Shown one piece after another: positions 1,955-59,964 of a DNA stretch of 64,000 nucleotides. This stretch comes from a virus, in the IMG/VR virus record IMGVR_UViG_3300021964_000018, positions 77,039-141,038 of that record. One strand, written 5' to 3'. Every line of letters starts with the position of its first letter. Positions within the stretch are counted from its first letter, which is position 1. The translations under genes were made by a program, and so were the position numbers. The notes beneath the pieces were generated by a model, which saw nothing but the letters and a program-made list of their open reading frames with translations, was not told the origin of the DNA and did not search any database.

Positions 1955-2866
1955 ATGAAATTAAATAGGCATAGTTTAAGAATGTTAATAGAAAGTGTAC
2001 TTCAAGAAGAAGTAGATGTTTCAAAATTCAAAAAAGGTGAATCCACAATAGTAGCGACAAAAGGTGCAGCTGCTGATAATAAAGCAGCTTTTGAAGTTTC
2101 TGATGTTGACACTATAAAGAAAAAACTAGGTATAAAAATATCAGGAAAATATTATGTATGGAAAGGAAGTCAAGCAGAAGCAGGTTATAAATTAGGTTCT
2201 GTTAGATATTCTTCAGGCGACCCTTATACTTACGAAGAATTATCAAATGGGTTTTACAGAGTAATGTCCGGACCAGATAGTAACGAAAAAAGAGATAGTG
2301 GAAAAAGAATAGGTACGTCTCCAATTGGTGCTAAGTTTAAACCTTCTTCTCCTCCAGACGTTGTTGTTGATCCTACAAATGTTCTTTCGAAGTTACGCGA
2401 AACTCCTGATGGAGATAAAAGATCAGGCAATTTCGATAAAGCTGTGAACATATTGGTGGCGTGTGCATCTGACAAAAAACAACTAGGTGACGTTATAAGT
2501 GAATTAGAAAGTCTAGCAAGTAGACCAATTAGAGGAAAAGATCTTCTCGCTCATCCTGCACATTATGTTGCAAGATTGATGATGGGAGGTGTACAACAAG
2601 GAGGCGAAGTTTCAGGAACAGGCGCAGCTGCAAGTAATTCCAAAATTATCAATAAATATTTGTCATTACTGCAGAAGAAGCACGGTATGGGACGTGGTAA
2701 CGTCGATATAAAATTTGACATGCGGATTAGCCAAGATCGCGCAGATAAATCTAATTTTGGAGATTCAGTTAAGTCTGGTGCGAAAACTGGTGGAGGTCAA
2801 GCTGAAAAAATGGATGAATCTTTATCACGCGGATCTTTACTAAGAAGACGTTATAGAAGATACTAG
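1955..2866 (+). CDS. Hypothetical protein with shared N-terminal leader (MKLNRHSLRMLIESVLQEE)
   Basis: SD AAGGAG before ATG 1955; leader motif. Confidence 0.75.
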   Translation: MKLNRHSLRMLIESVLQEEVDVSKFKKGESTIVATKGAAADNKAAFEVSDVDTIKKKLGIKISGKYYVWKGSQAEAGYKLGSVRYSSGDPYTYEELSNGFYRVMSGPDSNEKRDSGKRIGTSPIGAKFKPSSPPDVVVDPTNVLSKLRETPDGDKRSGNFDKAVNILVACASDKKQLGDVISELESLASRPIRGKDLLAHPAHYVARLMMGGVQQGGEVSGTGAAASNSKIINKYLSLLQKKHGMGRGNVDIKFDMRISQDRADKSNFGDSVKSGAKTGGGQAEKMDESLSRGSLLRRRYRRY

Positions 2867-2887
2867 AATTAGCAAATTATTAATTTT

Positions 2888-2911
2888 AAAAGCGGCAATG
2901 CCGCTTTTTTT
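2888..2911 (+). terminator. Intrinsic terminator
   Basis: AAAAGCGGC-aat-GCCGCTTTT plus T run after stop codon. Confidence 0.8.
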
Positions 2912-2912
2912 A

Positions 2913-2940
2913 TGTAAAAAAAAAGCTAACTTAATAAAAT
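2913..2940 (+). promoter_or_regulatory. TGTAAA-N16-TAAAAT promoter
   Basis: Exact motif and spacing upstream of the 2961 operon. Confidence 0.65.
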
Positions 2941-2960
2941 AAAAATAAAAAGGAGCAAAT

Positions 2961-3404
2961 ATGAATAAATGTTATATTGCCAGCGGTTGGTTTTCACCTG
3001 AATGGCTAGAAGAATTAGAAACAATTAAATCTGTACTTGATAGTCTAAATTTAAAATACTTTTCACCAAAAGATGAAAATCTTTGCGAGCCGGATTCTGA
3101 CGTTGGTTTTCAAGATCAAGTCTTTAACGGCAATATTAAAGGGATGGAAGAGTGTGATTGGATGATCTGTAATACTCGTAATAAAGATATGGGTAGTATT
3201 TTTGAAGCAGGTTATTTTCATAAGTTAGGAAAACCAATTGTTTACTTTTGCGCCGGTCTTCCTCCTGGTGCGCAATTTAATCTTATGCTAGCTGCATCTG
3301 GTAAGACAGTTTGTACATCAATTAAACAACTCAAAGGCTATCTTATCGATTGCCAGGCAACAGGTGAAATTATTACTCGTCGTTATGAAGGAGATATTGA
3401 GTAA
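2961..3404 (+). CDS. Nucleoside 2-deoxyribosyltransferase / nucleotide N-hydrolase family
   Basis: YIASGWFS N-terminus, DMGSIFEAGY motif with catalytic Glu, GKPIV, FNLML. Confidence 0.8.
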   Translation: MNKCYIASGWFSPEWLEELETIKSVLDSLNLKYFSPKDENLCEPDSDVGFQDQVFNGNIKGMEECDWMICNTRNKDMGSIFEAGYFHKLGKPIVYFCAGLPPGAQFNLMLAASGKTVCTSIKQLKGYLIDCQATGEIITRRYEGDIE

Positions 3405-4399
3405 TGAATATTTTTATTACTGGTGAAAAAGGTTTAATTGCACAAAATATTATTAAAGAAGCAAAAGAAAACTTTCCTGATGTAAATATTATTACAGGAG
3501 CTGTTGATTATCTTAATATGCATCAAGAAGGTGAACCTTGTGTTTATAAAAATTCAATTGATCAATGGAAATTCTTTTTTGATTTAAATCAAATTGATGT
3601 AATTATTCACAATGCAGCTGTTGTTAATACAGAAGTTGTTGGCATGAATCTTGAGCGCGCAACACGAACCAACGACGAAGGTACATATAAGATTTGCATG
3701 GCAGCACAAAAATGTGACATTCCTGTTTGTTATATGGGAACGACTGTTATCTATGATGCATTTAAATATCAAAACGAGAAAATAACAGAAGAATCATCAC
3801 GTGGACCACATACACTTTACGGCTGTCAAAAGCTAGCAGCAGAATATATTGTTAAGTCTCATGCACCGAAATGGATGATTATTCGACCTCTATTTGCATA
3901 TGGCGGAGAAGGTGATATGAATTCACTAATTGCAAAGTCAATTTATGCATGTCTTAACGGAAAGCAAGTTGATATGCGCCTAGATCCAACAAAATACAAA
4001 GATTATATGCACGTTTCAGATTATGCTAATGCAGTCTTAACAGGAATTACACAGCACCTTTGGAATGACGAATGGAACATCGCGGCAGAAACACCTCATG
4101 TAACAGAAAACATTATCAAAATGATTGAAAAGATTTGTGGTTTAGACATGTCAAATACAATCAATTGGAAATCTACTTCAGACTATACAGGTAATCATAG
4201 GTTGGATTCTAGTAAGTTTAGAAATGCTACCGGCTGGTCTCCTAAAGTTATACTAACCAAAGGAATTAGAATGTCTTATGAAACAATTCTGAATTCGGAA
4301 GGTTATAATCCATTAACACACCTTGAAGAAGCAGAAAAAAGAAACATCGACGTGGGAGAATACTTTAATGAAGCAAGAATTGCAAGAAAGTCTATTTAA
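3404..4399 (+). CDS. NAD-dependent epimerase/dehydratase (extended SDR)
   Basis: ITGEKGLIA, HNAA, YGCQK (YxxxK), DYMHVSD. Confidence 0.85.
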   Translation: MNIFITGEKGLIAQNIIKEAKENFPDVNIITGAVDYLNMHQEGEPCVYKNSIDQWKFFFDLNQIDVIIHNAAVVNTEVVGMNLERATRTNDEGTYKICMAAQKCDIPVCYMGTTVIYDAFKYQNEKITEESSRGPHTLYGCQKLAAEYIVKSHAPKWMIIRPLFAYGGEGDMNSLIAKSIYACLNGKQVDMRLDPTKYKDYMHVSDYANAVLTGITQHLWNDEWNIAAETPHVTENIIKMIEKICGLDMSNTINWKSTSDYTGNHRLDSSKFRNATGWSPKVILTKGIRMSYETILNSEGYNPLTHLEEAEKRNIDVGEYFNEARIARKSI

Positions 4400-4670
4400 T
4401 GCATACCCAAAGATTTTTGCGCGAAGACATATGCCAAAAGAATACACAGCGATGTGTTATGGAATTCAATGTCCAGATAGTTGGTATGATTTAATTGATA
4501 CACTTTGCGGAAGAATTCAATCTTATTCTGACCAAAAAGGAATAATATGTGAAGCAAATCAAGTAAAATCAAAATTTGGTGGTTTAAGATTTTACGTAAC
4601 TTATTCAGATCCCTATATTAAAGGATTGTTATCAATGGCAGAAATGATGTCGCTTAAAATAAAGGAGTAA
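4368..4670 (+). CDS. Conserved phage hypothetical protein
   Basis: ORF with WYDLI and QVKSKFGGLRFY motifs; SD GGGAG before ATG 4368. Confidence 0.65.
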   Translation: MKQELQESLFNAYPKIFARRHMPKEYTAMCYGIQCPDSWYDLIDTLCGRIQSYSDQKGIICEANQVKSKFGGLRFYVTYSDPYIKGLLSMAEMMSLKIKE

Positions 4671-4672
4671 TA

Positions 4673-5419
4673 ATGTCACATTCACAATATAAATGTCAAG
4701 TTCAAGGAAAAGAAAGTTATATTGATAATCAATTTGTTATCTTTTCTCAATCTTACTTAATGAATCAGGTTCATATCTACAATAAAGAAAAAGGTCACAC
4801 AACAAAAAATCGAGTTAAATTATTAGAATTGGGATGTTATAACGGTCGTGTTATGCACTTTATGACGCAACAAATGTTATTTGTTGATTATACAGGTGTT
4901 GATGTTACTCATCAGTATCTTGCACATTCACCGGTCGCAAATCGAAAAGACGTAACCTTGCTTTGCGAAGACGTAACAAAAGGATTGTCATTGGCTGACG
5001 GTTCTCAAGATATGATTATCAGCTCAGAAGTGTTAGAGCATATCAATCCAGAAGATTTACCAGGCGTAATGAGAACACTTTATAACAAGCTTAAAGTAGG
5101 TGGGCGATGTTGTGTTGCGTTTCCGATGAATACACGTGACACAATGTTTCACAATCTTGAAAAAGAACAAGGTTTAGGTCACGTTAATTTTCCTGTCTAT
5201 GAAGACTTTATTGAACTTTGTGAAAACATCGGATTTACCTTACATCATTATGATAGTGGGTTTTCGCTTAAATCAAGTTTTAGAACACCTCGTTATGGAA
5301 AAGATCCGCTATATGACAAGTTAAGAGATCGACTAGGTTCACCTGCTGCTCGAGCTGTTTGGATGACAATAACTGATGATCATACTGGTGGAGGATATTT
5401 TACTTTTGATAAGTTGTAA
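4673..5419 (+). CDS. Class I SAM-dependent methyltransferase
   Basis: LLELGCYNG, YTGVD, SSEVLEHI, LKVGG motifs. Confidence 0.85.
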   Translation: MSHSQYKCQVQGKESYIDNQFVIFSQSYLMNQVHIYNKEKGHTTKNRVKLLELGCYNGRVMHFMTQQMLFVDYTGVDVTHQYLAHSPVANRKDVTLLCEDVTKGLSLADGSQDMIISSEVLEHINPEDLPGVMRTLYNKLKVGGRCCVAFPMNTRDTMFHNLEKEQGLGHVNFPVYEDFIELCENIGFTLHHYDSGFSLKSSFRTPRYGKDPLYDKLRDRLGSPAARAVWMTITDDHTGGGYFTFDKL

Positions 5420-5464
5420 TTATTGCGAATAATTAATTATTGATTTATACTTTGTTAAAAAGGT

Positions 5465-7276
5465 GTGCAAATGATTATAAATGAAAAATTAATTAAAAAA
5501 CTCATTAAGGAGTCTATTAACAAGTTAATAGTTGAAAAAGCTAAGTTTACAAAAGCAGAAAATTTTTTAAAAGATACTGAAAATCATTATGAAATTTTTG
5601 AAAATATAAAATATTCCTATAATATTGTCATGTTAAAAGATTTTGAAAATGACCTAGAAGTAAAAGAAGAAGCAAAGAAAAATATAGAAAACGTCTTTGC
5701 TGCTTTTTTACACTCTAGCCCCAAAACAGAAAAAGGAAAGGTATGGTTTTTAGATAAGTCTATTAACAGATACGTTACAGACTTAAGCAATATTCCAGAA
5801 TTTGGCAGTAATCCTTTTTATGATAGTCCAATTTTACTTAAAAGAATAAAGGAAAAAAATAATTTTTCCGACCAAGAAGCAAAGAAAAACCTACTAGATA
5901 GAATTAAACGTTTCACGAAAGATATATCTAGAGAATTAATAGAACTAGTAAAGAAATCAGTAACACATGATTTGCAAAGAAAACTTAAGTCAAATTTTAT
6001 GGAAAAAAATAAAGACATATTAGAAAGTTTAAACTTTGTTCATTATCCTTATGCGTTTAGAGAATATTCAGAAACAGACACAACAGGGATCGGCGCAGTC
6101 TTAGAAGTCCTAGGAAAGCCCTTGGAATTTTTAAAAGGAACTGTAGTTAATAGTCCTGACGAATTAGCTGGGATTGGTTATCCTAAAGGGGAGGAATTAA
6201 GAGATTCAATTGGTATGGGTAGCGAGTTAGGAGGAAAAATCGCGTTTCCATATATTGGTTTTCTTATAACGGGAAAGATTACTTATTTTGATGAAAAAGA
6301 TGCTCAATCATCAACTTATCGAAGTAGCTTTGTTGGCGGTCAAAGAGACAGCAGCGGTTTTGTAAGATACCCAAAAGACATTCAAGGTTCAATGTCCAAC
6401 CAGATACCAGGCGCGTACAAGACAAAGGAGGAATTAGAAAATTATCTTTCTAATTTTGATAAAAGATTTGGCGCGTTAACAACAGCTGAAAGAAGCGAAT
6501 CTGAGATAAAAACTGGTTTTAAAAAACATAATTATGGTGAAGCTTTTATTGACAATTGGACAGCAGTTGGTATGATTGCGCAATGGGATTTAATTGTTAA
6601 AAAGTTTAGAGAAAAGCTTTTAGCAACTATAACAGGTTTAGAATTAGATCCTCAAAAAGAATTTAAGCAATACCTTTATAAAAATAAAGGTTATTCTCCT
6701 TTTAATGATATTCAATTGACACATAGCTTAAGAACAGCTAAAAAAAATCTAGATATCGTTGCCTTAGGCGAACCTAAAATAGAAGACTTGTCGGTAAATA
6801 AAAACCGATACAAGACGGCAAAAGATAATTTAAGTTTTGAATATGGTGGTGACTCAATTCCATACTTATCGAAAAAACTAGGTATTCAAAAAGAAGCAGT
6901 ACCTTCTTTTATTGAAGACTTTATAAAAAATATTGATCCTGTTTTAGAACAACTTAAAACAGGCGAAATATTATATAGTGAGTTAAATAATCCTAAAGTA
7001 GAAGAATTCATAGATAAATATTATGAAGGTGATATAGCTTCAGATTTGCAAAAACAACAACGCAAAATAAAAAACTTGATTAAAAAAACAGGCTCAGCAT
7101 CAATAATTTCAACTTTAACAATCGGTCTAGAAAAGATTAATGATGATTTAAGCAAATTTGAAGATATTAAACTAAAATCATATGATAAAAATTTCAATGA
7201 ATATGATGTTAAAATATTTACAAATAATATGAGGCAAATAATAGCAGAAGCAATTGCGCAATTAAAAAAACGTTAA
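5465..7276 (+). CDS. Large hypothetical protein with leader; paralog of 41821..43425
   Basis: INEKLIKKLIKESIN leader; blocks shared with the 41821 protein (HY..AF, S.DE.AG..Y, GQR..SGF.RY, E.FIDNW, DKNFNE). Confidence 0.75.
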   Translation: MQMIINEKLIKKLIKESINKLIVEKAKFTKAENFLKDTENHYEIFENIKYSYNIVMLKDFENDLEVKEEAKKNIENVFAAFLHSSPKTEKGKVWFLDKSINRYVTDLSNIPEFGSNPFYDSPILLKRIKEKNNFSDQEAKKNLLDRIKRFTKDISRELIELVKKSVTHDLQRKLKSNFMEKNKDILESLNFVHYPYAFREYSETDTTGIGAVLEVLGKPLEFLKGTVVNSPDELAGIGYPKGEELRDSIGMGSELGGKIAFPYIGFLITGKITYFDEKDAQSSTYRSSFVGGQRDSSGFVRYPKDIQGSMSNQIPGAYKTKEELENYLSNFDKRFGALTTAERSESEIKTGFKKHNYGEAFIDNWTAVGMIAQWDLIVKKFREKLLATITGLELDPQKEFKQYLYKNKGYSPFNDIQLTHSLRTAKKNLDIVALGEPKIEDLSVNKNRYKTAKDNLSFEYGGDSIPYLSKKLGIQKEAVPSFIEDFIKNIDPVLEQLKTGEILYSELNNPKVEEFIDKYYEGDIASDLQKQQRKIKNLIKKTGSASIISTLTIGLEKINDDLSKFEDIKLKSYDKNFNEYDVKIFTNNMRQIIAEAIAQLKKR

Positions 7277-7346
7277 TAATAATTAATAGTTATTACTAGC
7301 ATTATGAGGTACAAATATTATAAATTAAACTAAGTTTTGCACCACG

Positions 7347-7374
7347 TGTAAATGTGCCACATACAAATTATAAT
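7347..7374 (+). promoter_or_regulatory. dnaE promoter TGTAAA-N16-TATAAT
   Basis: TGTAAA 7347-7352, TATAAT 7369-7374. Confidence 0.7.
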
Positions 7375-7384: not shown

Positions 7385-7409
7385 TTTTATTGTATTTAAA
7401 AGGAGTATT

Positions 7410-14541: not shown

Positions 14542-15150
14542 ATGTTAACGGCAATGGGCGACGTTATGCGAAAAGCACACGAAAAAGGATGGATTACAAC
14601 AAGAGATGGTAATGTATCTGTTAAAATGACAGGAAAAGATATCCTATATATAACACCTTCTGGTTGGCGAAAGACAATATTGCATCCTGAACATATTATT
14701 AAAGTTAAATTTACCCCTGCAGGTTTAAACGTTCCAGAAGGAACAACACCTTCTGGGGAATTGCATATGCATTCAAAGCTTCAACGGTTTGCAAAATATA
14801 CGAGATCGGTTGTTCACCTTCACCCCACAAATATTATTGCAGCAATGTATGCCGGCTGGAATTTGCAATCGTTGGCAGCAGAATTTCCTGAGGTATCACG
14901 TTATACAAGGGTTGGACCAACTGTTCCAGTTCTTCCTGTCACGTCGAATATACTTGCTGAAGAAACATTTGAGGCTTTTACTGATTTTGAAGGTACCGGA
15001 TCTAATAAACTTAAGTTTGATATTGTTGGTCAAAAAAATCATGGAGTTTGTGCAGTAGGCGCAAATCCATGGGATGCTTATGAACATATTGAAAGGTTAG
15101 AACACATTTGTGAAATAGCCTTAAAAAGTGGAAGAAGACCTAATGAATAG
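14542..15150 (+). CDS. Class II aldolase/adducin family protein
   Basis: DGNVS, TPSG, SGELHMH, HLHP, NHG. Confidence 0.9.
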   Translation: MLTAMGDVMRKAHEKGWITTRDGNVSVKMTGKDILYITPSGWRKTILHPEHIIKVKFTPAGLNVPEGTTPSGELHMHSKLQRFAKYTRSVVHLHPTNIIAAMYAGWNLQSLAAEFPEVSRYTRVGPTVPVLPVTSNILAEETFEAFTDFEGTGSNKLKFDIVGQKNHGVCAVGANPWDAYEHIERLEHICEIALKSGRRPNE

Positions 15151-15553
15151 ACCAGAATGGGATGATATATGGATGGGTTTTGCTCAAAGTATTGCTAAGA
15201 GATCTTGTGATTCAAAATATCAAGTTGGTGCCGTCGTTGTAAATTCAGAAAACACACAAGTTCTTTCAATAGGATATAATGGTGATCAAAAAGGTGGGTC
15301 AAATCAAAGGGACTCTACTGAAACCGGTCAATCAGGATTTATTCATGCAGAAATCAATGCATTAATTAAGATGGACTATAATAACCCATGTAAGAAAAAA
15401 ATGTATTTGACTCTTTCGCCTTGTGAAGTCTGTGCAAAAGCAATCGTCAATGCAGGAATAACAGCAGTCGTTTATTCTAAAGAATATGAGCACGGAAAAA
15501 AAGGAATATCTATTTTAAATGATGCAGGAATAGTGGTAAGAAACATTAAATGA
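15143..15553 (+). CDS. dCMP deaminase
   Basis: VGAV, GYNG, HAEINA, SPCEVC. Confidence 0.9.
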   Translation: MNRPEWDDIWMGFAQSIAKRSCDSKYQVGAVVVNSENTQVLSIGYNGDQKGGSNQRDSTETGQSGFIHAEINALIKMDYNNPCKKKMYLTLSPCEVCAKAIVNAGITAVVYSKEYEHGKKGISILNDAGIVVRNIK

Positions 15554-17719: not shown

Positions 17720-18058
17720 ATGAAATTGAATAGAAGAGAATTAAGAAAATTAATTCACGAATCGATTAATGAAGCAATGTCGCATGAAAGAAATTTTAGA
17801 AAAGCGCAACTTGCTCATGATAATATGCAACAGCCTGATTTTTATGAAGGTGATCCATCAAGTTTTTATGCCTCGGATGAAGAAATATTTGATTTCGCTG
17901 TTGAAAATTTAATTGATTTACTAATTGATCGTGCAGTTGATGAAGGTATTTTAACTGATGAACAAGTTGAAAACATGTCCGATGAAGAATTAATTCCAAT
18001 ATTAAGACAGAATTTTAAAAGTGATCTTTATAAAGATGAATATGATCAGTATAATTAA
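17720..18058 (+). CDS. Hypothetical protein with leader (MKLNRRELRKLIHESINE)
   Basis: Leader motif; ATG right after upstream stop. Confidence 0.75.
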   Translation: MKLNRRELRKLIHESINEAMSHERNFRKAQLAHDNMQQPDFYEGDPSSFYASDEEIFDFAVENLIDLLIDRAVDEGILTDEQVENMSDEELIPILRQNFKSDLYKDEYDQYN

Positions 18059-27404: not shown

Positions 27405-29024
27405 ATGGAAATCAAAAGAGAAGTAATTTTTAAAGATAGTTTTGAAAGTAAAATAAAAAAAGGAATTGACACACTTTCAAATGCAGTTAAAACAACAATG
27501 GGGCCTAAAGGAAAATTAGTTCTTATTCAGAGAGAAGGACAACACCCAATCGTAACAAAAGATGGCGTAACAGTTGCTAATTCTATCAATCTAGTGGATG
27601 AAGTAGAAAATTTAGGCGTTAAAGTTTTAAAAGAAGCAGCATCTAGAACTGCTGATGAAGCGGGTGACGGAACAACTACCTCAACTGTTTTAGCACAAGC
27701 CATTTTTAACGAAGGCTTAAAAATGAAGTCTGCAGGATTTCAAATTGATTTAATTAAAAGAGGTATTGATTCTTCACTTAAATTAATTAAAGATTATTTA
27801 CTTGAAGCAAAAAAAGATGTAACGAGTAATGAAGAATTAAAGCAAGTTGCAATGATATCTGCAAACGGTGAAGAAGAAATTGCTAATCTTATTGTCGACG
27901 CAATTCAGGCAGCTGGACCTGATGGGTCAGTCATTGTTGAAGAAGCAAAAGGATTTAAATCAGAGCTTAATGTTGTTGATGGTTTTCGATTAGAGCGCGG
28001 ATATTTGTCGCCTTATTTTGTAACAGATAAAAATAAAATGACATGTGAATTTGAACGCCCTTTAATCCTAATTGCCGACAGAGAATTCAATACAATACAC
28101 GACCTTATGAAACCATTGGAAACGGCTTTGGATTCATCCAGGCCTATTCTGATCATCGGAAATGATATCCAAGGTGATGCTCTTCAAGGAATGGTATTAA
28201 ATAAAGTAAAAGGATCGTTGCGGGTTTGTGCAATTAAGTCTCCGGGTTTTGGCGGGTCTAGACATGATATGTTGGTAGATTTGCAGTCAGTTATAGGAGG
28301 TGAAGTAATTACATCTTCGTTTAATATGAGCGAATTTAAAATGGAGCATTTTGGAACGTGTGAAAAATGTATTATTCATAAAAACATGACAATGATTATT
28401 TCAAAAGACACGAAGCAAAAAAATAAAAAGATTGAGGAACGAATCGATTCAATTCGAAGCCGCCTGCTAGAAAGATATTCATTGCAAGATGGTGAAGAAA
28501 ACATTTTAAAGTATCGTTTACAACAATTGTCGGGAGGTATTGCAATATTACGAGTTGGAGCTGCTACAGAATCTGAATTGATTGAGAGGTATGATCGTGT
28601 TGATGACGCATTGCATGCAACGAGGGCAGCTTTGCAAGAAGGAATCTTACCAGGTGGAGGAGTTGCATTAGCAAGAAGTTCAAAAAAGCTTAAGGAATTA
28701 TCGACAACAATTGATAATCCTGATATAAAAGCTGGAGTTGAAATAATGTTAAGAGCTGTTACGTCGCCTTTTAAGCAAATCATAAAAAATGGCAATAAGT
28801 CAGATCAAACGTTATTAGATGCTGTGATTGAAAAAGATAATAATACAGGTTATGATTCTAGAAATAATAAGTTTGGTGATATGTATTCTTTGGGAATTGT
28901 GGATCCACATAAAGTTGTTAGATGTGCAATTGAAAATGCAACGTCTGCAGCAACAATGTTGTTGAGTGTTGAATGTTGTCTTATAAGTTTGAAACAAGAA
29001 AATTCAGAAGATAATTATAATTAA
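27405..29024 (+). CDS. groEL: Group I chaperonin GroEL (divergent, no GGM tail)
   Basis: TMGPKG, TKDGVTVA, GDGTTT, RGYLSPYF, GGGVAL. Confidence 0.95.
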   Translation: MEIKREVIFKDSFESKIKKGIDTLSNAVKTTMGPKGKLVLIQREGQHPIVTKDGVTVANSINLVDEVENLGVKVLKEAASRTADEAGDGTTTSTVLAQAIFNEGLKMKSAGFQIDLIKRGIDSSLKLIKDYLLEAKKDVTSNEELKQVAMISANGEEEIANLIVDAIQAAGPDGSVIVEEAKGFKSELNVVDGFRLERGYLSPYFVTDKNKMTCEFERPLILIADREFNTIHDLMKPLETALDSSRPILIIGNDIQGDALQGMVLNKVKGSLRVCAIKSPGFGGSRHDMLVDLQSVIGGEVITSSFNMSEFKMEHFGTCEKCIIHKNMTMIISKDTKQKNKKIEERIDSIRSRLLERYSLQDGEENILKYRLQQLSGGIAILRVGAATESELIERYDRVDDALHATRAALQEGILPGGGVALARSSKKLKELSTTIDNPDIKAGVEIMLRAVTSPFKQIIKNGNKSDQTLLDAVIEKDNNTGYDSRNNKFGDMYSLGIVDPHKVVRCAIENATSAATMLLSVECCLISLKQENSEDNYN

Positions 29025-41741: not shown

Positions 41742-41773
41742 TTAATTGTATAAAAGCTAAAAAGCTAAAATCT

Positions 41774-41815
41774 TTATAAACCTCTGTTTGTAGCAAATAG
41801 TTATAAACGGAGGTT
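41774..41815 (+). repeat. 33-bp direct repeat copy 1 / RBS-sequestering hairpin
   Basis: TTATAAACCTCTGTTTGTAGCAAATAGTTATAA (41774-41806) identical to 43443-43475; 16-bp stem covers GGAGG. Confidence 0.9.
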
Positions 41816-41820: not shown

Positions 41821-43425
41821 ATGTTTATAAATGAAAATAGAATTAATGAAATTATACGACATGTAATTTTAGAAAACATGGCACAGATGGGCCGAGCTTT
41901 TTTTGATAGTAAAGAAAGGAAAGCACAAGTTGAAAAAGAGCATCAAAGAAAAAGTAAAATTGCATATAAAAATCTAATACAAAACATGCATGCATTTATT
42001 AAAAACGAAGATTTGAATTCTATTATTTCATTCATTGTAAATAAGTCAGACACATATCTATTAGGTCCAGCTTATAATTATTACTTTAAAGGAAAGATTA
42101 ATTATGTGCCATCTGGTACATCAGGTTATGCAGGATCAGACGCACTTAAAAAAGAATTTTTTGATTATATGTCTGAAAACGGGAAGGAAAAGTTATCAAA
42201 ATTTTTAAATAGCTTGATCAAAAAAATAGGTCCCGGTTTAGAAAATGTCAAGCCAGGTTCCGGAACTAGTTCTGCAGATGAACAATTTTTAAGAGTGTTG
42301 GAGGATTACAAAAGACAGTTTTATAGTGCAATTGAATCTAACAAAAAAGATTTGGAAAAAATAATTTCGCTTAATGAAAAGTCTATTAACTACATAGAAA
42401 ACTTTAAAAACAAATATGACAAGCAAGGTTTTGATTTTGATGCACCAGGTGATTTTGAAAAAAGAGCGACTAAAAAAGAGTTTGATAATGTTGAAAAGGC
42501 AGAAGAATATAAGAAATTAACATTTGAAAAGTTTGAAGAAAAAATAATTTCAATAACTAAAAACGAATATATAAGTTATAATTTAATTGCAGTTTTACAA
42601 CAGATTTTAAAAAAACACATAAGTGATTTAAAAATTTCAAAGTCTGATAATATTATTGCACAAGCAAGAGTTGATAAGCGAAACTATTCAGAAGTAATAA
42701 AAAACAACCCCGGTTGGTTTATTGTACATTATATTAATGCATTTACTGAGCAAGACTATCAGGACGTTTTTCCTGGCGTATTATCTTGGGTCAACTATTT
42801 TGGAGGTAAAAGATCAAAAGATGAATTTGCAGGTGTTGCTTATCACAAAGATAATAAATACTTAGGAGATAATATTGGAAGAGGGACAGGAACAAGAGAC
42901 AAATTACCAAGAGTAGGCGCTATACTGCAGGGATATGTTACTGCTATTTATGATGGCGATGTTGGGTCAACTACTTTTTCTCAAAGTAACCCTTATGGCG
43001 GTCAAAGAGAAGAAAGCGGATTTACAAGATACGCAGGTGATATGGGTGATTATTCTAGTCAAAGTAAAAGATTAATTATCGATTTAGAAAAATATAAAGA
43101 AAGTGTACAGGGAAAGGATTTTCTTTACAATGAAGGTTTTATAGACAATTGGCAGCCAACAGGAATAATAGCTGATTGGGAAGAAATTAAAAAAGTTTAT
43201 ATTAATAATGCAAATTCATTTTATCCAGAGTTAAGCGGGAAAGAAAAACCAGAAATTGTTAAAGCGTTATCAAACATTCTTTTGAGGATACCGCTAGCTT
43301 GCCAAGAAAAAGGCATGAAAATATTTGATAAAAACTTTAATGAAATTAACGCAAAAGATTTTATAAAAATACTTAAAGATATGATAGATAACATATCTAA
43401 TGTTTTATCTAGTCCTGGAAAATAA
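41821..43425 (+). CDS. Hypothetical protein with leader-like N-terminus; paralog of 5465..7276
   Basis: Shared motif blocks with the 5465 protein. Confidence 0.75.
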   Translation: MFINENRINEIIRHVILENMAQMGRAFFDSKERKAQVEKEHQRKSKIAYKNLIQNMHAFIKNEDLNSIISFIVNKSDTYLLGPAYNYYFKGKINYVPSGTSGYAGSDALKKEFFDYMSENGKEKLSKFLNSLIKKIGPGLENVKPGSGTSSADEQFLRVLEDYKRQFYSAIESNKKDLEKIISLNEKSINYIENFKNKYDKQGFDFDAPGDFEKRATKKEFDNVEKAEEYKKLTFEKFEEKIISITKNEYISYNLIAVLQQILKKHISDLKISKSDNIIAQARVDKRNYSEVIKNNPGWFIVHYINAFTEQDYQDVFPGVLSWVNYFGGKRSKDEFAGVAYHKDNKYLGDNIGRGTGTRDKLPRVGAILQGYVTAIYDGDVGSTTFSQSNPYGGQREESGFTRYAGDMGDYSSQSKRLIIDLEKYKESVQGKDFLYNEGFIDNWQPTGIIADWEEIKKVYINNANSFYPELSGKEKPEIVKALSNILLRIPLACQEKGMKIFDKNFNEINAKDFIKILKDMIDNISNVLSSPGK

Positions 43426-43442
43426 AATATTTTATCATAATC

Positions 43443-43483
43443 TTATAAACCTCTGTTTGTAGCAAATAGTTATAAGCAGAGGT
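43443..43483 (+). repeat. 33-bp direct repeat copy 2 / RBS-sequestering hairpin
   Basis: Identical 33-mer; 15-bp stem covers AGAGGT. Confidence 0.9.
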
Positions 43484-43489
43484 ATTTTT

Positions 43490-44524
43490 ATGCAAGCAAG
43501 AAAAGGTGAATGGTTTTCTTTATCATGGGATATTATAGGTACTCATGATGAAAAAGCATATAGTCATTTTTATAATGCTCCTAAATTTTTGTATGCAGAA
43601 GAAGACAGCAAACAAATTGAAGCTGAAGTCATTAATGAATTTTATCGATTACGGCTGGCCAGAATATTTATCACATCAGTTTTCGTAACTGATACAGAAG
43701 GAAATAAAGTCCCTACACATTATCGAATTGGTGAATTTATGCCAGGAGATAATAAATCTTATGACAAATGGTTGGCAAGGTACCATAAGATTAATTTTGA
43801 AGTTACGGAATATGTTCGTGCTAAAGAAGCACTAAATCAAAAAAATGTATATCTTGAACATTCGGCTAAAATTATTCGTCATGATATGCATAGCGGAATT
43901 AATACTTACATTCCACGAGGATTTAAAAGTTTAATTCGTAGATTACCAGAAAACATAATTAAAGAAAACCGTTTAGAAACTGCGCTTAAGCTATTAAAAG
44001 AAGGTATTGATCACGCCCAGAGAGTTTATAGTGGAGTTTATGCATTCACAAACTTGGTAAAAGAAGATAGCGTTTTAGAACAAGAAATATGCGATTTGAG
44101 AGAAGTAATTAAAGATTATCTCAGAGGAACAGCATATTCAGACCAAGTTATTGTTGAAGAATTAATTGAATTAGAGGTTAATAGTTCTTTATTTTGCACA
44201 GCAATCGACAACTTAATAAGAAACGGTTTAAAATATAATGACAGTCCAACCAAATTTGTTCGTATATATATGGAAGATGAAGAAACAATCTGTGTCCAAG
44301 ATAATGGTAGGGGATTGTCCCGAAGAGACTTTTTATATTTTTGCAAACCTTATGTAAGAAAAAGAGGTCAAGCTGAGTCTGGCTCAGGTTTAGGGCTTAA
44401 CATCGCAGCTGCTATATTTACAGAGCACGGTTTTTCAATTGACCCAGAAAAGTTAGAAAATGGCACAATTATGAGGATAAAATTAAATGCAGGTGATAAA
44501 AAGTATATTATTAGTGGACGATGA
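43490..44524 (+). CDS. Sensor histidine kinase (cytoplasmic)
   Basis: H box IRHDMH, N box NLIRNGLKYN, G1 DNGRG, G2 GSGLGLNI. Confidence 0.9.
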   Translation: MQARKGEWFSLSWDIIGTHDEKAYSHFYNAPKFLYAEEDSKQIEAEVINEFYRLRLARIFITSVFVTDTEGNKVPTHYRIGEFMPGDNKSYDKWLARYHKINFEVTEYVRAKEALNQKNVYLEHSAKIIRHDMHSGINTYIPRGFKSLIRRLPENIIKENRLETALKLLKEGIDHAQRVYSGVYAFTNLVKEDSVLEQEICDLREVIKDYLRGTAYSDQVIVEELIELEVNSSLFCTAIDNLIRNGLKYNDSPTKFVRIYMEDEETICVQDNGRGLSRRDFLYFCKPYVRKRGQAESGSGLGLNIAAAIFTEHGFSIDPEKLENGTIMRIKLNAGDKKYIISGR

Positions 44525-44924
44525 AACTCTATTTCATCTTGTTTTTGATGACGCATGCAACATCTTAGACATCTCTTTAAATCTTGAAACTGTATCTTCT
44601 TCAGACACAGCTGAAAATATGTTTAAAGGGTTTCAAACAAATCAAGATGATAAGCCTGAATGTGTTTTTGTTGACCTAAACATTATTGGGTCATCATTTG
44701 ATGGGATAGAATTGGTTCGTAGAATTAATTATCAATACGGAAATGGTGTTGTAATAGGGATTATTTCAAGTTCATCAGATCCTATTGAGATTGATAAGGC
44801 AAAAGGTGCAGGTGCGCAGTTTTGGATTGTAAAATCAGATGATATTGAGCCTCGCTTGGAACAATTTAAAGCTGATTATCCTAATTATAAAAACAGGACA
44901 GGTGCTTTTAAGGTGTACAAATGA
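44487..44924 (+). CDS. Single-domain response regulator
   Basis: LLVDDE, FVDLN (phospho-Asp), DGIEL, ISSS, IVKS. Confidence 0.9.
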   Translation: MQVIKSILLVDDETLFHLVFDDACNILDISLNLETVSSSDTAENMFKGFQTNQDDKPECVFVDLNIIGSSFDGIELVRRINYQYGNGVVIGIISSSSDPIEIDKAKGAGAQFWIVKSDDIEPRLEQFKADYPNYKNRTGAFKVYK

Positions 44925-45484: not shown

Positions 45485-45669
45485 AAAAGCATTTAAAAGA
45501 AATTAACATGTCTTATTTTCAGCATATGAAATGCGCATTAGGCTATGCTAAAGAAAGTGGAAAAGCAATGATATATTTTTTTATTCACGCTTTCTTACCT
45601 GATATTTGGGTTGTAAAAGGCTCAAAAAAACTTAAAGAAATAAATAAGTCAATTGAGGATAGAAAATGA
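45481..45669 (+). CDS. Small conserved protein (DUF6356-like)
   Basis: HLKEINMSYFQHM...IHAFLP pattern. Confidence 0.6.
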   Translation: MKKHLKEINMSYFQHMKCALGYAKESGKAMIYFFIHAFLPDIWVVKGSKKLKEINKSIEDRK

Positions 45670-46103
45670 AATTAACAAGAAACGGATTAAGAAGATTGAT
45701 TTTAAAAGAATTTAAAGATGTAGCAGGTGGTAGCAACTATCGAATTGGAGGTGGCGGCTTTGGTTTGCCACCTGACGAACCTGACGACGGTGAAGGACCA
45801 GGAAAACCATTGACACCTTGTGAAAATTTTGACTCTAAATCACATAAAAAATCTCTTGAAATAGTTCAATCATTATTTCAACAAGCATATGAATTAAGAG
45901 GTGAGTCAGATATATTTTTAAATCAATCTGGTTTTTTTAGCGAAGATCAGTTATTTTCAATTGACAAAGACGCAGAAATTTATTTGGAGTCTGATTTGGC
46001 TACGGAATTGTGTAAGGCTGGAAATACTTTAGAAAAAAGAATGGAAATACTAATTAGACTGACTGATCCTAAAGCTTTATTTAGTATGCTTAACGACTAT
46101 TAA
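45666..46103 (+). CDS. Hypothetical protein with leader (MKLTRNGLRRLILKE); related to 48880..49380
   Basis: Leader; GF..PP....DGEG..CENF, LTDPKAL. Confidence 0.7.
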   Translation: MKLTRNGLRRLILKEFKDVAGGSNYRIGGGGFGLPPDEPDDGEGPGKPLTPCENFDSKSHKKSLEIVQSLFQQAYELRGESDIFLNQSGFFSEDQLFSIDKDAEIYLESDLATELCKAGNTLEKRMEILIRLTDPKALFSMLNDY

Positions 46104-55534: not shown

Positions 55535-55582
55535 TTACAAGCTAGATTAATACTTGTTATAATAAAAATAAAAGAGGTTAAA

Positions 55583-55792: not shown

Positions 55793-55946
55793 TTTAGAAT
55801 TTATATTTTTGATTTTAATGTGGGTTGGTATTATTGGGTGTTTTATAACTTTTATCTGGTATCCCAACCCACTTCTTTTTTTTGCATCGATATTATCTTT
55901 TTTAATATTTAGACATCTTAGTGAAAACACACATTATTTCAAATAA
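55782..55946 (+). CDS. Small membrane protein (54 aa; not in ORF track)
   Basis: MKDSLEFIFLILMWVGIIGCFITFIWYPNPLLFFASILSFLIF... fills the gap. Confidence 0.45.
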   Translation: MKDSLEFIFLILMWVGIIGCFITFIWYPNPLLFFASILSFLIFRHLSENTHYFK

Positions 55947-55969
55947 TTATTTCTAGTAGCGGAGATAAT

Positions 55970-56194
55970 GTGTCAGAAAGTAAAAAAAGAAAGTTAATGT
56001 TAGATAGGCCCACTAATCATGGAGGATGGCCAAATGGAGGAAATAATAGTTGGGTAGGTGATAAGCCTGTTGCTGACATTATTTATGATTATTTGGAATC
56101 AATGGGTTTAACTGCTGACGTACCGCATGCTAAACTTAGTGAAGCAAGAATTAGAAAACTAATTAAAGAAGCATTAGTCCGGAATATAAAATGA
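55970..56194 (+). CDS. Hypothetical protein with C-terminal leader-like helix
   Basis: Ends LSEARIRKLIKEALVRNIK. Confidence 0.65.
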   Translation: MSESKKRKLMLDRPTNHGGWPNGGNNSWVGDKPVADIIYDYLESMGLTADVPHAKLSEARIRKLIKEALVRNIK

Positions 56195-56604
56195 ATCAAG
56201 TATCAGCAGCAGGTGTAATTGTATATAAAAGTTTAGGATCCGGGCGCATCCTTTTTTTAGGTTTACACGCCTTACCACAATTCCAAACTAAGAATAATGG
56301 TTTTTATGATATCCCAAAAGGCAGAATTGACCCGGGTGAAAATGCACTACAAACTGCCAGACGTGAAGCATATGAAGAAGCATCACTTACAATAACAAAC
56401 TTTGAAGAAGGTCCTTTTATACATGATAAATTAACAGTTTGGTTAACAGAATGTCATCAAGAACCTCAAATAGGTGTTAACCCAACAACAGGAATTCAAG
56501 AACATCTAGGATACTCCTGGATCAAACCTGCTGTATTAGAAGCACAATGTTTAGATTATTTAAAGCCGCATGTTCGTTGGGCACGAAGATTAATTGAGGG
56601 ATAA
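56191..56604 (+). CDS. NUDIX hydrolase
   Basis: PKGRIDPGENALQTARREAYEEASL Nudix box. Confidence 0.9.
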   Translation: MNQVSAAGVIVYKSLGSGRILFLGLHALPQFQTKNNGFYDIPKGRIDPGENALQTARREAYEEASLTITNFEEGPFIHDKLTVWLTECHQEPQIGVNPTTGIQEHLGYSWIKPAVLEAQCLDYLKPHVRWARRLIEG

Positions 56605-56606
56605 AA

Positions 56607-56840
56607 ATGAATGCTACTAAAATTCAAGAACGTTTTGCTAATTTATATAAGTTAAGAAATCAATTGTGTAAAGATCAGCAAAGCAAAATGGAGTTGGACG
56701 AAATCAAAAAATGGATTACAGATCAACTTAAATATTTAAGAACGCTTACAAAAAATAAAAATGTTGATCGTTCTGAAATATGTATGCGTATAGATGATGT
56801 TTTGTGTGCTTTAGACGTTGAGGAGGGTGATCATGAGTAA
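56607..56840 (+). CDS. Hypothetical protein
   Basis: ORF track. Confidence 0.6.
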   Translation: MNATKIQERFANLYKLRNQLCKDQQSKMELDEIKKWITDQLKYLRTLTKNKNVDRSEICMRIDDVLCALDVEEGDHE

Positions 56841-57156
56841 TGAAGACGGTTGGGCAGAATATTCACGGTTAGTGCTTAAAGAATTAGAAACACTTGCTGT
56901 GGGTATTAAGGAATTAAATGATAATCTTGGTGATGTTAAAAGAGAGATTGCCGAGATTCGTGCAAGAGAAGATAAAGTTCAAGAATTGGTCAAATGGAAA
57001 GAGCGAATTGATGAGGTTGCTTCTCCAACACAAATTAAAGAATTAACAAAGCAAGTTGAAGATTTAAAATTATTCAAAACAAAAGCAATCACTGTTTTTG
57101 CAGTTGTGCAATTCGCCATGGCAGCTATTGTTTTTGCAATGAAGTTTATGGAGTAA
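56833..57156 (+). CDS. Coiled-coil protein with C-terminal TM helix
   Basis: SD GGAGG; hydrophobic C-terminus. Confidence 0.65.
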   Translation: MSNEDGWAEYSRLVLKELETLAVGIKELNDNLGDVKREIAEIRAREDKVQELVKWKERIDEVASPTQIKELTKQVEDLKLFKTKAITVFAVVQFAMAAIVFAMKFME

Positions 57157-57159
57157 AAA

Positions 57160-59964
57160 TTGAAAATTACTAGAAGACAAATACGAAGGCAGTTAAAAAG
57201 ATATTTGCTAAGAGAAATGAAAGCATATAAAGCTGCCAGAGAAGCATTAATTGCCGGCGGAAACCTAAACCCTACCGAAGATCAAGTAAAAAGATTAGCA
57301 AAAACTTATGAAAATAATGCAATGGCCACTTTACTCAAGCTTAAAGATGCTTATTCTTCTTCACATAACGCTACAAAAATTGCACAAGAAAATGACAACA
57401 AGACTGATTTAATAGCATTTTCAAATTTTTTCAATAGTTTTCAAAGACCTGTTAAAGGCCAATGGAACAGTTCCATTTCACAGGCTTTCACGGATTTAGA
57501 GTTAACTAATCATGAAAAAGGTCAAGGATATGGATTTAAAAAAACCGTTCCAGTAAATGATTTGCAACAGAGTAGTCAATTATCACCTGAGGAAAGAAAC
57601 TATCTTAAAGTTATTGATGCTTCAGGAGTATATCCTGATTCAGATAGGGAATTTGCTCGTTGCGCAATAAATTCAGCTGCAGGAGCAATTTCCTCTGATG
57701 CACAACCAATGCCTGATGAACTAGGATCTAAAATAGAGGTAGGGGTGGCAGCAACGTTAGCTTTTTTAGACCCGACAAAAACTTATTATGCTAGAACTGA
57801 TACAGCACCAGGACAAGATCTTTTTAGGACAGGTGATGATATTACATTTGAATGTAAATTTTCAAAAAGCGAAAAAGGAGATATTAACGATCGATTTGGA
57901 GGATCACAACCAAGTTCTATCAAGTTTAATAAATTTTATGTTTTCTTATCAAGTGATCGATCTTACTTTATTAATTCTTCAATTTTGTCAGGGTTAGGCG
58001 CTGTAGGATCAGACGTCATCCCTAGAAATAGTTCAAGAATTGAAAATCAAAAATATAATTCTAAACTTATGGAGCATTTGTTTAATCAGCAAGAGTTAAA
58101 ACAAAAGTTTATAGAAATATTAGCAGAATTTGCTGAAAAAACAACTGTATATTACAAAGAAGGATCAAGAGTTGTTCGTGCACCAAGAACTGGAAACTTA
58201 GAAGATGCAGAAAGTAATATTAGAAAAGCACTTCGAGACAAAAATAAGACTGGCCTCCCACCTGAGGTTGCTTCCTATACACAAGATTCTTTAATTCCTG
58301 ATCCTCCCACAATAAAAAGATTAGCTGGATTAATCATTAATCAAATTAATGCTAGCAATGAAAAAAATAGATATATTGAGTCATTAAGGTATATGGATAT
58401 GATTAATGATTTATTTATTGAAAGATCAATAACAACTGCAATTTCAGGCCCGGTCACGGCTGGCGGAATAAGAATGCCAGGAATGAAAGAAGAAGCAATA
58501 AATCAGCTCAATGCAGGTGGAACTACAAACCCGACTGATGATCAAATTAATGAAAAAGCAATTGAACTTTACAATGGAGAATGGGATTATTTTTTAAGAG
58601 ATTCTAATTCCGGAAACTTAAAGCCTTATGGAGGTTTAGCCTCTCAGGGAAGTATGGGACTAACTGGAAAATGTTTTATATTATTGATTAACTATTTAAT
58701 ATATGCCTGGAACTTAAAAGACGATCCAATGCTAACAAAACTAGGGCAAGATTTTATTCAAACAGCCATTGAAGGTGCTTCCAAAGCTTATGGAAGACAA
58801 CAGGCAGAAACAAAGTCAGGTAAAAATTATGTAGATAAATTAAAAGAAAGTGAACCTGATGGTTCCGCGATGCTTATTATGAATTTAATAAATAATCCTA
58901 CAACTTTTACTGAAGAGCAAAAAAAGATTTTAATTAATCAATTGTATGGTGACAAAGATAATCCTTACCAAATCTCCGACAATTTTGATTTTGATTCTGG
59001 TACACCGACGCTTATTAGTATAACTGAAAAAATTCAAAATAGTGATTTGGCTATGTCTCAATTATTTATTGAATTTATGAGAAGTGAGTCCGGAAGAAAA
59101 AATATAATTAATGATTTTATCACAGTTGAATCATTCGATTTAGTGTTTTCTGACGTAGTTGATGTAATTCAAAATTATTTTGACGAAAAAATGACTGCTT
59201 TTTCAATGCCTCAAATGTCATCTGATGTTGAACTTAAATCTTCTTACAATGAAAAGTTTTCACAATTACAATCATTAATTAATAACTTAAAGTCTGAATT
59301 TGTCAACTCAACAGATAAATACGGAATGATTATTGATGGATTAAGATTGAAAAATATTGAGCTTACAATTAAATCAAATAAATTTTGGACTGCTTTTGAT
59401 CGAGAAGAAATGTGGGGTGAAGGTTCTGACCCAGATTTTGACGAAAAATTGTTTGAATTATTTTTTAAAAAAACAGCATCATCAGATTCTTTAACTGATA
59501 AAACAACTAGTCAATTATCTGAAATTAGTAATAAAATATTTAATTATTTATCTCCTGACTTAATAGCATTTAGAAAATCTTTGATGGATGCAATATTAGC
59601 GATCGCAGATCAAGAAATTAAAAATATATTACCGCAAGCTAAAACTAAAATTAAACAAAATTTATCTCAAGAAAATTTATATAACATTGAAAATCAATAC
59701 AAATTATCATTAAGTAGCGAAGAATTAAATGCTTATAATTCACTAGATAGAGAGCCACAAATTCTTCAAATGTTAAACGCAGATGTAATTGATGAACGTC
59801 AAGCTAAAGTTTTAAGAAGAACTAAAGATCCCTTAAAAGCATTAAAAAGAGCATTTGAAGAAAACCCATACGAAGATGAATTAAATGCTCCTATCAGAGA
59901 AAATAAAAACAATTTAGCAATTTACAATAAGGTTATTAAAGAATTACTTAAATATTCAAAATAA
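57160..59964 (+). CDS. Large leader-bearing protein with possible PD-(D/E)xK nuclease motif
   Basis: MKITRRQIRRQLKRYLLRE; GQDL...TFECKFS; internal repeat L.AGG..NPT.DQ. Confidence 0.65.
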   Translation: MKITRRQIRRQLKRYLLREMKAYKAAREALIAGGNLNPTEDQVKRLAKTYENNAMATLLKLKDAYSSSHNATKIAQENDNKTDLIAFSNFFNSFQRPVKGQWNSSISQAFTDLELTNHEKGQGYGFKKTVPVNDLQQSSQLSPEERNYLKVIDASGVYPDSDREFARCAINSAAGAISSDAQPMPDELGSKIEVGVAATLAFLDPTKTYYARTDTAPGQDLFRTGDDITFECKFSKSEKGDINDRFGGSQPSSIKFNKFYVFLSSDRSYFINSSILSGLGAVGSDVIPRNSSRIENQKYNSKLMEHLFNQQELKQKFIEILAEFAEKTTVYYKEGSRVVRAPRTGNLEDAESNIRKALRDKNKTGLPPEVASYTQDSLIPDPPTIKRLAGLIINQINASNEKNRYIESLRYMDMINDLFIERSITTAISGPVTAGGIRMPGMKEEAINQLNAGGTTNPTDDQINEKAIELYNGEWDYFLRDSNSGNLKPYGGLASQGSMGLTGKCFILLINYLIYAWNLKDDPMLTKLGQDFIQTAIEGASKAYGRQQAETKSGKNYVDKLKESEPDGSAMLIMNLINNPTTFTEEQKKILINQLYGDKDNPYQISDNFDFDSGTPTLISITEKIQNSDLAMSQLFIEFMRSESGRKNIINDFITVESFDLVFSDVVDVIQNYFDEKMTAFSMPQMSSDVELKSSYNEKFSQLQSLINNLKSEFVNSTDKYGMIIDGLRLKNIELTIKSNKFWTAFDREEMWGEGSDPDFDEKLFELFFKKTASSDSLTDKTTSQLSEISNKIFNYLSPDLIAFRKSLMDAILAIADQEIKNILPQAKTKIKQNLSQENLYNIENQYKLSLSSEELNAYNSLDREPQILQMLNADVIDERQAKVLRRTKDPLKALKRAFEENPYEDELNAPIRENKNNLAIYNKVIKELLKYSK

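Follow-up and report, generated by a model that had tools for sequence, protein, structure and literature searches.

Leader genes and the T4-type head module

We analysed a window of 64,000 nucleotides (the whole stretch of DNA considered here, to which positions refer unless given as genome positions), which is the last 64 kb of a single viral contig of 141,038 bp, IMG/VR record IMGVR_UViG_3300021964_000018, that is ~54% complete by CheckV. The contig has 33% GC, and its + strand carries nearly all genes. Our subject is a short N-terminal peptide, here called the leader, that a sequence-only reading of the window had described on at least 13 open reading frames (ORFs) encoding mostly unrelated proteins. 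All 13 coordinates are indeed ORF starts with a ribosome-binding site (RBS; Shine-Dalgarno), and the motif M-K-[LI]-[TNK]-[RKN]-x-x-[LI]-[RK]-x-[LI]-[IL]-x-E comes directly after the start, which is not ATG in two cases, 47125 (GTG) and 57160 (TTG). A 16-column profile hidden Markov model (HMM) of the leader, scanned on the six-frame translation of the whole 141-kb genome, gave 20 matches of at least 10 bits, every one of them at residues 1-3 of a + strand ORF, with noise at or below 9.1 bits. Together with the upstream genes listed below, this shows that the family is real and larger than the 13 genes first listed. The leader genes and doubtful candidates of the window are as follows, with lengths in amino acids (aa) and each leader written up to the predicted cut site, the next residue standing after a slash.

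1955..2866, + strand: leader gene, 303 aa, MKLNRHSLRMLIE/S, orphan cargo; HMM 22.1 bits at residue 1, RBS AAGGAG, no Pfam or PHROG match
5471..7276, + strand: diverged leader gene (first placed at 5465), 601 aa, MIINEKLIKKLIKE/S; clusters de novo with the family, Glu at residue 14, no Pfam match
17720..18058, + strand: leader gene, 112 aa, MKLNRRELRKLIHE/S; HMM 24.0 bits
18087..18464, + strand: leader gene, 125 aa, MKITRKQLRSLIME/A; HMM 26.9 bits, the best in the genome
23779..24903, + strand: leader gene, 374 aa, MKIKRSDLEKLIQTNLMNE/I, with the Glu displaced to residue 19; HMM 17.7 bits
41232..41741, + strand: leader gene, 169 aa, MKLNRKNLRKLINE/V; HMM 23.6 bits
41821..43425, + strand: doubtful diverged leader, 534 aa, MFINENRINEIIRHVILE; hydrophobic register by eye, I-L-E at residues 16-18, significant with neither this HMM nor that of the second leader class described below
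45666..46103, + strand: leader gene, 145 aa, MKLTRNGLRRLILKE/F, then a Gly/Pro-rich linker; HMM 22.6 bits
47125..47604, + strand: leader gene (GTG start), 159 aa, MKLTKKHLKRLIKE/A, probable GNAT-fold cargo; HMM 18.6 bits
47601..48494, + strand: leader gene, 297 aa, MKLTRTHLQNLLIE/Q, Lys/Arg-rich C-terminal domain (phrog_7595); HMM 19.3 bits
48496..48867, + strand: leader gene, 123 aa, MKITKKQLRKIILLE/M; HMM 17.9 bits
48880..49380, + strand: leader gene, 166 aa, MKLTRKALRKIISE/F, Gly/Pro-rich linker; HMM 24.3 bits
49382..50194, + strand: leader gene, 270 aa, MKLTRRQLRYLISE/A; HMM 25.6 bits
50448..51680, + strand: leader gene, 410 aa, MKITNKKIKKLIKE/S; HMM 16.5 bits, no family or protein-atlas match
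57160..59964, + strand: leader gene (probable TTG start), 934 aa, (M)KITRRQIRRQLKRYLLRE/M; HMM 10.5 bits, no family match
61670..61894, + strand: doubtful leader, 74 aa, MDELKEIIRMLLKE/I; L-K-E at residues 12-14 by eye, RBS AGAGGA, below the HMM threshold

Three of these had been proposed as weaker versions of the leader. The first of them is a diverged member of the family, for which ATG 5471, with its RBS AAGGTG, is a likelier start than 5465; the other two, at 41821 and 61670, have no HMM significance. The start of the 934-aa gene also deserves comment. A public gene call for this protein (57160-57219 region) puts the start at Met20, exactly where the mature protein would begin after a cut behind L-R-E19; the TTG at 57160 has the spacing GGAGTAAAAA, the same as in gene 18087, and we consider it a likelier true start than Met20.

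The leader is found at the N-terminus far more often than composition would allow. Of 155 proteins, 16 begin with the strict motif, where composition predicts 1.5e-4; inside proteins it was seen once in 45,253 residues. In 12 proteins the pattern [LIVM][LIV]xE has its Glu at residue 14, against about one protein for each other position. With a net charge of +4 to +6, the leader is a basic amphipathic helix. None was found on ThyX, two epimerases, a methyltransferase, a deoxynucleoside monophosphate kinase, DHH, Cpn60, PMM, FEN, sigma-70, a helicase, an amidohydrolase, a HATPase or DnaE of this genome, so that the reported absence of the leader from replication and metabolic enzymes holds for these gene products.

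Judging from its genes, the contig comes from an uncultured marine phage with a T4-type head. Upstream of the window lies a complete T4-type morphogenetic module with a large terminase, gp20, a gp21-type protease, a protein in the position of a scaffold, Gp23 and two sheath-like genes. The portal gene product matches Portal_T4 (gp20) at 239.6 bits, and the capsid gene product is a Gp23-family major capsid protein (118.5 bits). The prohead protease, of 199 aa (genome positions 14595-15194), scores 92.6 bits with Peptidase_S77 (PF03420), for which the cut-off is 27, and matches phrog_207 at E 1e-52. In an alignment to T4 gp21 (PDB 5JBL; E 2e-14), it has His and Ser where we place the catalytic residues H85 and S140 of T4 gp21 (with a 19-residue offset); the deposited 5JBL chain has Ala at both presumed catalytic positions. 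The S77 protease of this genome is apparently active. Between the protease and capsid genes is encoded a poly-acidic, helical protein of 493 aa, a scaffold candidate by its position and composition. The contig also encodes a DnaE-type polymerase and many nucleotide and sugar enzymes, and the window a phage Cpn60/GroEL-family chaperonin (27405-29024; Pfam Cpn60_TCP1, 236.6 bits).

At least ten further leader genes lie upstream of the window, at genome positions 3825, 15191, 15752, 21605, 24314, 24664, 25884, 27014, 28150 and 28821, which brings the total to at least 23 among the ~155 genes of this half-complete contig. Two of the upstream genes come directly after the protease gene, and six consecutive ones stand between head and tail genes. 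One of these six encodes a LysM domain and a phage lysozyme domain, which fits an ejected wall-degrading protein.

Modularity and distribution of the leader

Residues 21 to the end of 23 leader proteins have no BLAST similarity to one another or to other proteins of the genome, the sole exception being a weak match in a Gly/Pro linker. This dissimilarity beyond residue 20 contradicts a plain paralogous family. The leader is also kept where a single cargo can be followed. In the family of 47601 (639 homologues), it persists across orthologues down to 51% identity while its x positions drift; of the 16 members read, 12 have it, two begin downstream of it and the other two are altered at the N-terminus. 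In an alignment of 35 members, 32 have Glu at residue 14. All six homologues of 47125 keep their leader. The Lys/Arg-rich C-terminal domain of 47601 occurs by itself as a leaderless protein of 79-90 aa in Pelagibacter and Roseobacter podophages; such stand-alone forms of the phrog_7595 domain are widespread in podophages, examples being HTVC026P gp24 and CRP-235 gp49. Because this domain is leaderless in podophages, which are without a T4-type head, the leader must have been joined to an already existing domain in this lineage.

A shared 5' end could in principle be mainly a nucleic-acid feature, such as an initiation or regulatory cassette or a recombination handle, with a peptide that has no function of its own. 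The A-rich codons after the ATG (AAA ATT ACA AGA AAA) and the uniform GGAG-N5-ATG spacing favour initiation, the tandem arrays of leader genes described below suggest cassette exchange, and conserved promoter-terminator cassettes drive shuffling in T4-type genomes, according to two studies (PMC2839356, PMC4122927). However, synonymous codons at conserved leader positions vary freely, in approximately genomic proportions, and L and I interchange, while the amino-acid pattern is kept to residue 14; the DNA upstream of leader genes is not conserved, the RBS being its only common element; and, among the matches listed from IMG/VR, the pattern holds at a locus GC of 0.33 to 0.71. We give this explanation very little chance of being right. 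These patterns indicate instead that the leader is a module, and that selection acts on the peptide rather than on the DNA.

To follow the leader outside this genome, we fetched stretches from IMG/VR with a degenerate back-translation of the leader, which gave at least 115 stretches (0.96 Mb), with a rough estimate of less than one match by chance. On these, the leader HMM finds at least 393 ORF starts with a leader. Among the matches listed, leader genes often form tandem arrays of up to ~20 small genes. Cellular genomes are almost free of the pattern: 596 Gb of bacterial and archaeal genomes have it in seven stretches, six of them singletons at about the rough chance level. The seventh, the 306-kb contig NHDW01000006.1, is binned as Methylococcaceae bacterium TMED69 and has five leader copies in 5 kb. 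An 8-kb contig labelled as giant-virus metagenome-assembled genome ('GVMAG') also has the leader; both contigs are probably mis-binned phages of the clade described next.

For the protease of this genome, IMG/VR contains 456 relatives, of which the best 80 are 66-100% identical to it. No protease from a cultured phage is more than 51% identical, and those of four cultured T4-like marine and freshwater phages are 41-50% identical. We then looked for S77 in leader-rich contigs that had been found through the leader alone. It is present in all five such contigs of 184-293 kb (71-100% complete) and in seven of ten overall, including two of the five further contigs; the three without it are 27-45% complete. 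The proteases of the leader-rich contigs and of this genome form one clade, with 64-83% identity to one another and at most 56% to cultured phages. The leader therefore appears to be a trait of one S77-bearing uncultured clade. As text, it was not found in the literature searched.

A complete relative of 293 kb (G003) has 29 leader genes, 21 of them in one array 115 kb from the protease. De novo clustering revealed that at least nine of its proteins (about 9-14) have a leader of a second class, MNLLREYIRELLSE, which differs in sequence and again has [LI]xE at residues 12-14. That two unrelated leader classes hold [LI]xE equally far from Met1 fits a targeting sequence or propeptide. Class-2 copies lie near both ends of this relative (for example G003:1951, 2495, 3181, 3789 and 282952-292823). 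One copy stands ~295 residues inside a long open frame at G003:290156, and may be an internal cleavage site or a fusion. In our own genome, an HMM of the second class gives no match of 6 bits or more at any ORF start, so that an assignment of 41821 and 61670 to this class is by eye alone.

Four cultured T4-like phages (HTVC008M, immuto, Mel-JY01 and S-SM2) gave no match to the leader pattern with two mismatches allowed. De novo clustering did show that Flavobacterium phage immuto (NC_055915.1) has a shorter relative of the leader, MKKSQLRQIIKE, on gp095, gp094 and gp080, whose N-termini follow the pattern MKKS[EQ]L..[IL]I[KR][EK]E. Its leader-like genes lie at NC_055915.1 101270-103359 and 113188-113946. 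Immuto gp099 is an orthologue of the 47601 cargo, and its start, MIRLQE, ends in L-x-E. We suggest that immuto (vB_FspM_immuto), which infects Flavobacterium sp. LMO8, could serve as a test system.

The cleavage motif and the proposed function

In T4, the capsid-targeting sequence (CTS) is the textbook peptide for loading arbitrary proteins into the capsid, and it has already been used to engineer protein-delivering phage particles; we take its sequence to be MKTYQEFIAE, of 10 residues. The first 10 residues of internal protein (IP) IPIII suffice to load foreign proteins into T4 heads, gp21 cleaves C-terminal to the Glu after L/I-X-E, and residues 8 and 10 of the CTS govern processing, which Asp at residue 10 (P1) blocks (PMC9026906). 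The internal proteins of T-even phages are diverse, with the CTS alone conserved (PMC3012670).

The leader has the corresponding residues. Among the matches listed are 314 distinct leaders, in which residue 14 is Glu in 284, a count inflated to a modest degree by the collecting HMM, which mildly favours Glu there; it is never Asp, the residue that blocks processing in T4. Residue 12 is I or L in 299 of the 314, and conservation drops sharply after residues 15-16. When only those 172 listed leaders are considered that were not constrained by the fetch pattern, 142 have Glu14 and none has Asp.

In 337 cargos among the matches listed (50,307 residues beyond position 24), [LI]xE occurs at 0.97x the shuffle expectation, whereas the control motifs [LI]xD, Ex[LI], [LI]xK and [LI]xQ in the same cargos reach 1.21-1.35x, and [LI]xE in 1,305 neighbouring proteins reaches 1.24x. 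For this genome alone the values are 0.90 and 1.16, which is the right direction and is not significant. Such depletion is the signature that would be expected of proteins surviving a protease specific for [LI]xE.

We consider it likely that the leader, with the consensus M-K-[LI]-[TNS]-[RK]-x-x-L-[RK]-x-[LI]-I-x-E, is a lineage-specific, expanded capsid-targeting sequence and propeptide of a T4-type head. The evidence in favour includes the gp21-type S77 protease, gp20 and gp23 of this genome, the fixed Glu14, the depletion of [LI]xE in cargo, the co-occurrence with S77, and the leader genes in the head module. We propose that the basic amphipathic helix of the leader would dock a newly made protein onto the acidic scaffold or core of the prohead; the strongly basic character of the leader and the strongly acidic one of the scaffold candidate suggest that docking may be electrostatic. 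After closure of the shell, the S77 protease would, if it shares the specificity of its family, cut behind Glu14 of [LI]-x-E and free the mature cargo in the head. Some cargo may then leave with the DNA at infection, by analogy with the T4 IPs and Alt. Our confidence that cargo is injected and acts on the host, which likewise comes from analogy, is much lower than our confidence in a targeting sequence and propeptide. When the S77 protease (21-row alignment) was modelled in complex with the first 45 residues of the 47601 family, the score was 0.01, with no control runs, a result that speaks neither for nor against binding.

The leader might alternatively be recognised by a different partner, for instance an enzyme that modifies it in the style of ribosomally synthesised and post-translationally modified peptides (RiPPs), a chaperone or a host factor, the [LI]xE being a coincidence. 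The phage does encode its own Cpn60, and hydrophobic residues spaced i, i+3/4 are frequent in amphipathic helices. Nonetheless, among the matches listed, residue 14 is Glu, never Asp, nor Gln or Lys to any extent, and this is what a Glu-specific protease requires and helix amphipathicity does not. In the second, unrelated leader class [LI]xE lies equally far from Met1, and [LI]xE is depleted in cargo; both observations count against another partner. A tag for recognition by a radical-SAM enzyme was rejected, since PF04055 is absent from this genome and from G003 and present in one of five long relatives. Recognition by another partner is, in our judgement, highly unlikely.

The targeting sequence and propeptide that we favour resembles the T4 CTS in being a short N-terminal peptide that starts with Met-Lys, ends in [hydrophobic]-I-x-E and sits on unrelated proteins. 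As in T4, it is accompanied by a gp21-type S77 protease (T4's cuts after L/I-x-E) and a head module with gp20, gp21, gp22-like and gp23 genes, and, as in T4 and T-even phages, the genes that carry it are partly dispersed and partly in variable arrays. Unlike the 10-residue T4 CTS, the leader has 14 residues, of the MKITRRQLRRIIKE type, and is strongly basic; we found no homology between the two beyond the Met-Lys start and the hydrophobic-I-x-E end, as compared by eye. The scale differs as well: T4 has three such genes, and T-even ip loci a few more each, against at least 23 in 141 kb here, 29 plus about 9-14 of the second class in G003, and hundreds across the clade. The lineage, too, is unlike T4, being an uncultured marine clade with a DnaE polymerase.

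Giant phages offer a second comparison. In phiKZ, 201phi2-1 and SPN3US, the cut motif is reportedly S/A/G-x-E and the propeptides are said to be long, with no shared short leader; here, by contrast, one short leader is reused verbatim on unrelated proteins. These phages have 8-19 or more head-internal or ejection proteins that are processed after Glu by a protease related to T4 gp21, and this large internal protein cargo is ejected into the host (PMC5694885, PMC7411985, PMC10052503); for the phage studied here, a large internal cargo is proposed by analogy.

A sorting and cleavage signal like the T4 CTS had been suggested by the sequence-only reading, and it is the explanation with the best support. 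Its further description as an undescribed system does not stand, because diverse T-even internal proteins that share only a CTS are textbook knowledge (PMC3012670, PMC9026906). The principle is already known from T4, and a review from the T4 field already proposes it as an evolutionary device (PMC9026906). What is new is the 14-residue leader, the finding that it is confined to one large clade of uncultured marine phages, the scale of its use, and the statistics of Glu14 and of [LI]xE depletion.

The cargo and its fate

The cargos were expected to include GNATs and a nuclease-like protein, and to form an effector arsenal. One probable GNAT was found, no nuclease was confirmed and the remainder are orphans: at E ≤0.01, phrog_7595 (in 47601) is the only Pfam or PHROG match among the leader proteins of the window, and none is functional. 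The label of effector arsenal is not upheld by this set, nor by its composition, for mature cargos are mostly acidic or neutral, with a median isoelectric point of 5.5, and are as a set not basic like the T4 IPs, so that the expectation of basic, IP-like mature cargo had to be dropped.

The 47125 protein matches Acetyltransf_1 at E 0.034 (14.9 bits, under the cut-off of 20.7), and its structural model (predicted TM-score, pTM, 0.74) has top Foldseek matches that are nearly all GNATs (E 1e-3 to 1e-2, TM 0.3-0.4); a regular-expression search for the canonical Q/RxxGxG/A motif found none. Judging from the model, this cargo probably has a GNAT fold. In the model of 47601, the leader is a low-confidence helix (residues 5-13) that ends at the predicted cut site, with coil before the folded body. 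Foldseek gave nothing significant for this model, only weak rows resembling SRP9/14 or dsRBD, and its basic C-terminal domain looks like a nucleic-acid binder. The protein atlas had no usable match for the 934-aa and 410-aa cargos, for which restriction-endonuclease-like features at 0.85-0.87 are in the range of chance.

The main live alternative to the reading that we favour concerns only what becomes of the cargo. It assumes the same targeting and cutting, the leader again being an address and cleavage tag for the prohead core, and supposes that the tagged proteins are for the most part disposable pieces of core or scaffold, which the maturing head degrades and expels instead of delivering them to the host. 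In T4, gp22, gp67 and gp68 are fragmented by gp21 (PMC9026906). The two leader genes directly after the protease gene are where T4-type phages keep core genes, many relatives have a second [LI]xE 6-9 residues past the leader, as in ...IIKEEKARLLKE, and cargos are mostly small acidic orphans, all of which would suit a disposable core. However, the avoidance of [LI]xE beyond residue 24 suggests that mature parts are meant to survive the protease, at least for part of the set; some cargos are large or enzyme-like (the LysM-lysozyme, the probable GNAT, and proteins of 410-934 aa); and unrelated cargos replace one another rapidly in the tandem arrays, much as in the arms-race ip loci of T-even phages. 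On balance we regard a mostly disposable cargo as unlikely, less so for the many small acidic orphans.

Several observations weigh against a capsid-targeting sequence and propeptide, in addition to the modest inflation of the Glu14 count mentioned above. More than half of the leader genes lie amid non-structural genes, although T4 ip genes are likewise dispersed, and the 21-gene array of G003 is 115 kb from its head genes. Promoter patterns give no early or late assignment, TATAAT-like boxes being found before structural and non-structural genes alike and most leader genes lying inside operons. The exact leader occurs in no cultured phage with virion proteomics. Mature cargos differ in charge from the basic T4 IPs, and differences between classes of protein could contribute to the depletion of [LI]xE. 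In the 47125 model, the leader runs without a break into the first helix of the fold. Lastly, 23 to ~40 cargo species per head would be far above T4's handful, so that some may be degraded scaffold-like proteins.

A more far-reaching possibility, which we put forward tentatively and would not ourselves assume, is that an abundant, uncultured marine T4-type clade with genomes of 130-300 kb gives ~10-15% of its genes to swappable, protease-matured capsid cargo, with dozens of unrelated proteins in each virion, addressed by one or two 14-residue peptides, and with lysozyme and acetyltransferase injected along with the DNA. If this is true, virion-delivered protein arsenals would be a major, overlooked layer of phage-host conflict in the ocean, and the leader would be of use as a small, transferable tag for packaging. 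The reuse of one distinct leader on dozens of unrelated proteins in a genome matters apart from this possibility: genes for head-internal cargo may be far more numerous, and evolve faster, than T4 suggests, and many 'hypothetical' ORFs of marine phages would gain a testable address, inside the virion and possibly injected. From an alignment hundreds of leaders deep it should be possible to read how residues 2-12 govern targeting and residues 12-14 cutting. In practice, one simple rule on sequence could flag candidate virion-internal proteins when T4-type phages from metagenomes are annotated.

Some minor features of the window lie close to leader genes or doubtful candidates. Positions 1893-1910 and 1955-1972 form a perfect 18-bp inverted repeat, one arm of which consists of codons 1-6 of leader gene 1955; their reverse complement stands 45 nt upstream. 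In the predicted hairpin, the start codon would be buried in the stem while the RBS lay in the loop, and this may provide translational control. An element of ~45 nt (TTATAAACCTCTGTTTGTAGCAAATAGTTATAA.C.GAGGT) is present at 41770-41815 and again at 43440-43485, upstream of genes 41821 and 43490, and its ends are able to pair across the RBS. The second of these genes belongs to a stretch (43490-44924) that encodes a HATPase_c (histidine-kinase-like) protein and then an ORF with a receiver-like N-terminus (ILLVDDE...), which together may be a phage two-component pair.

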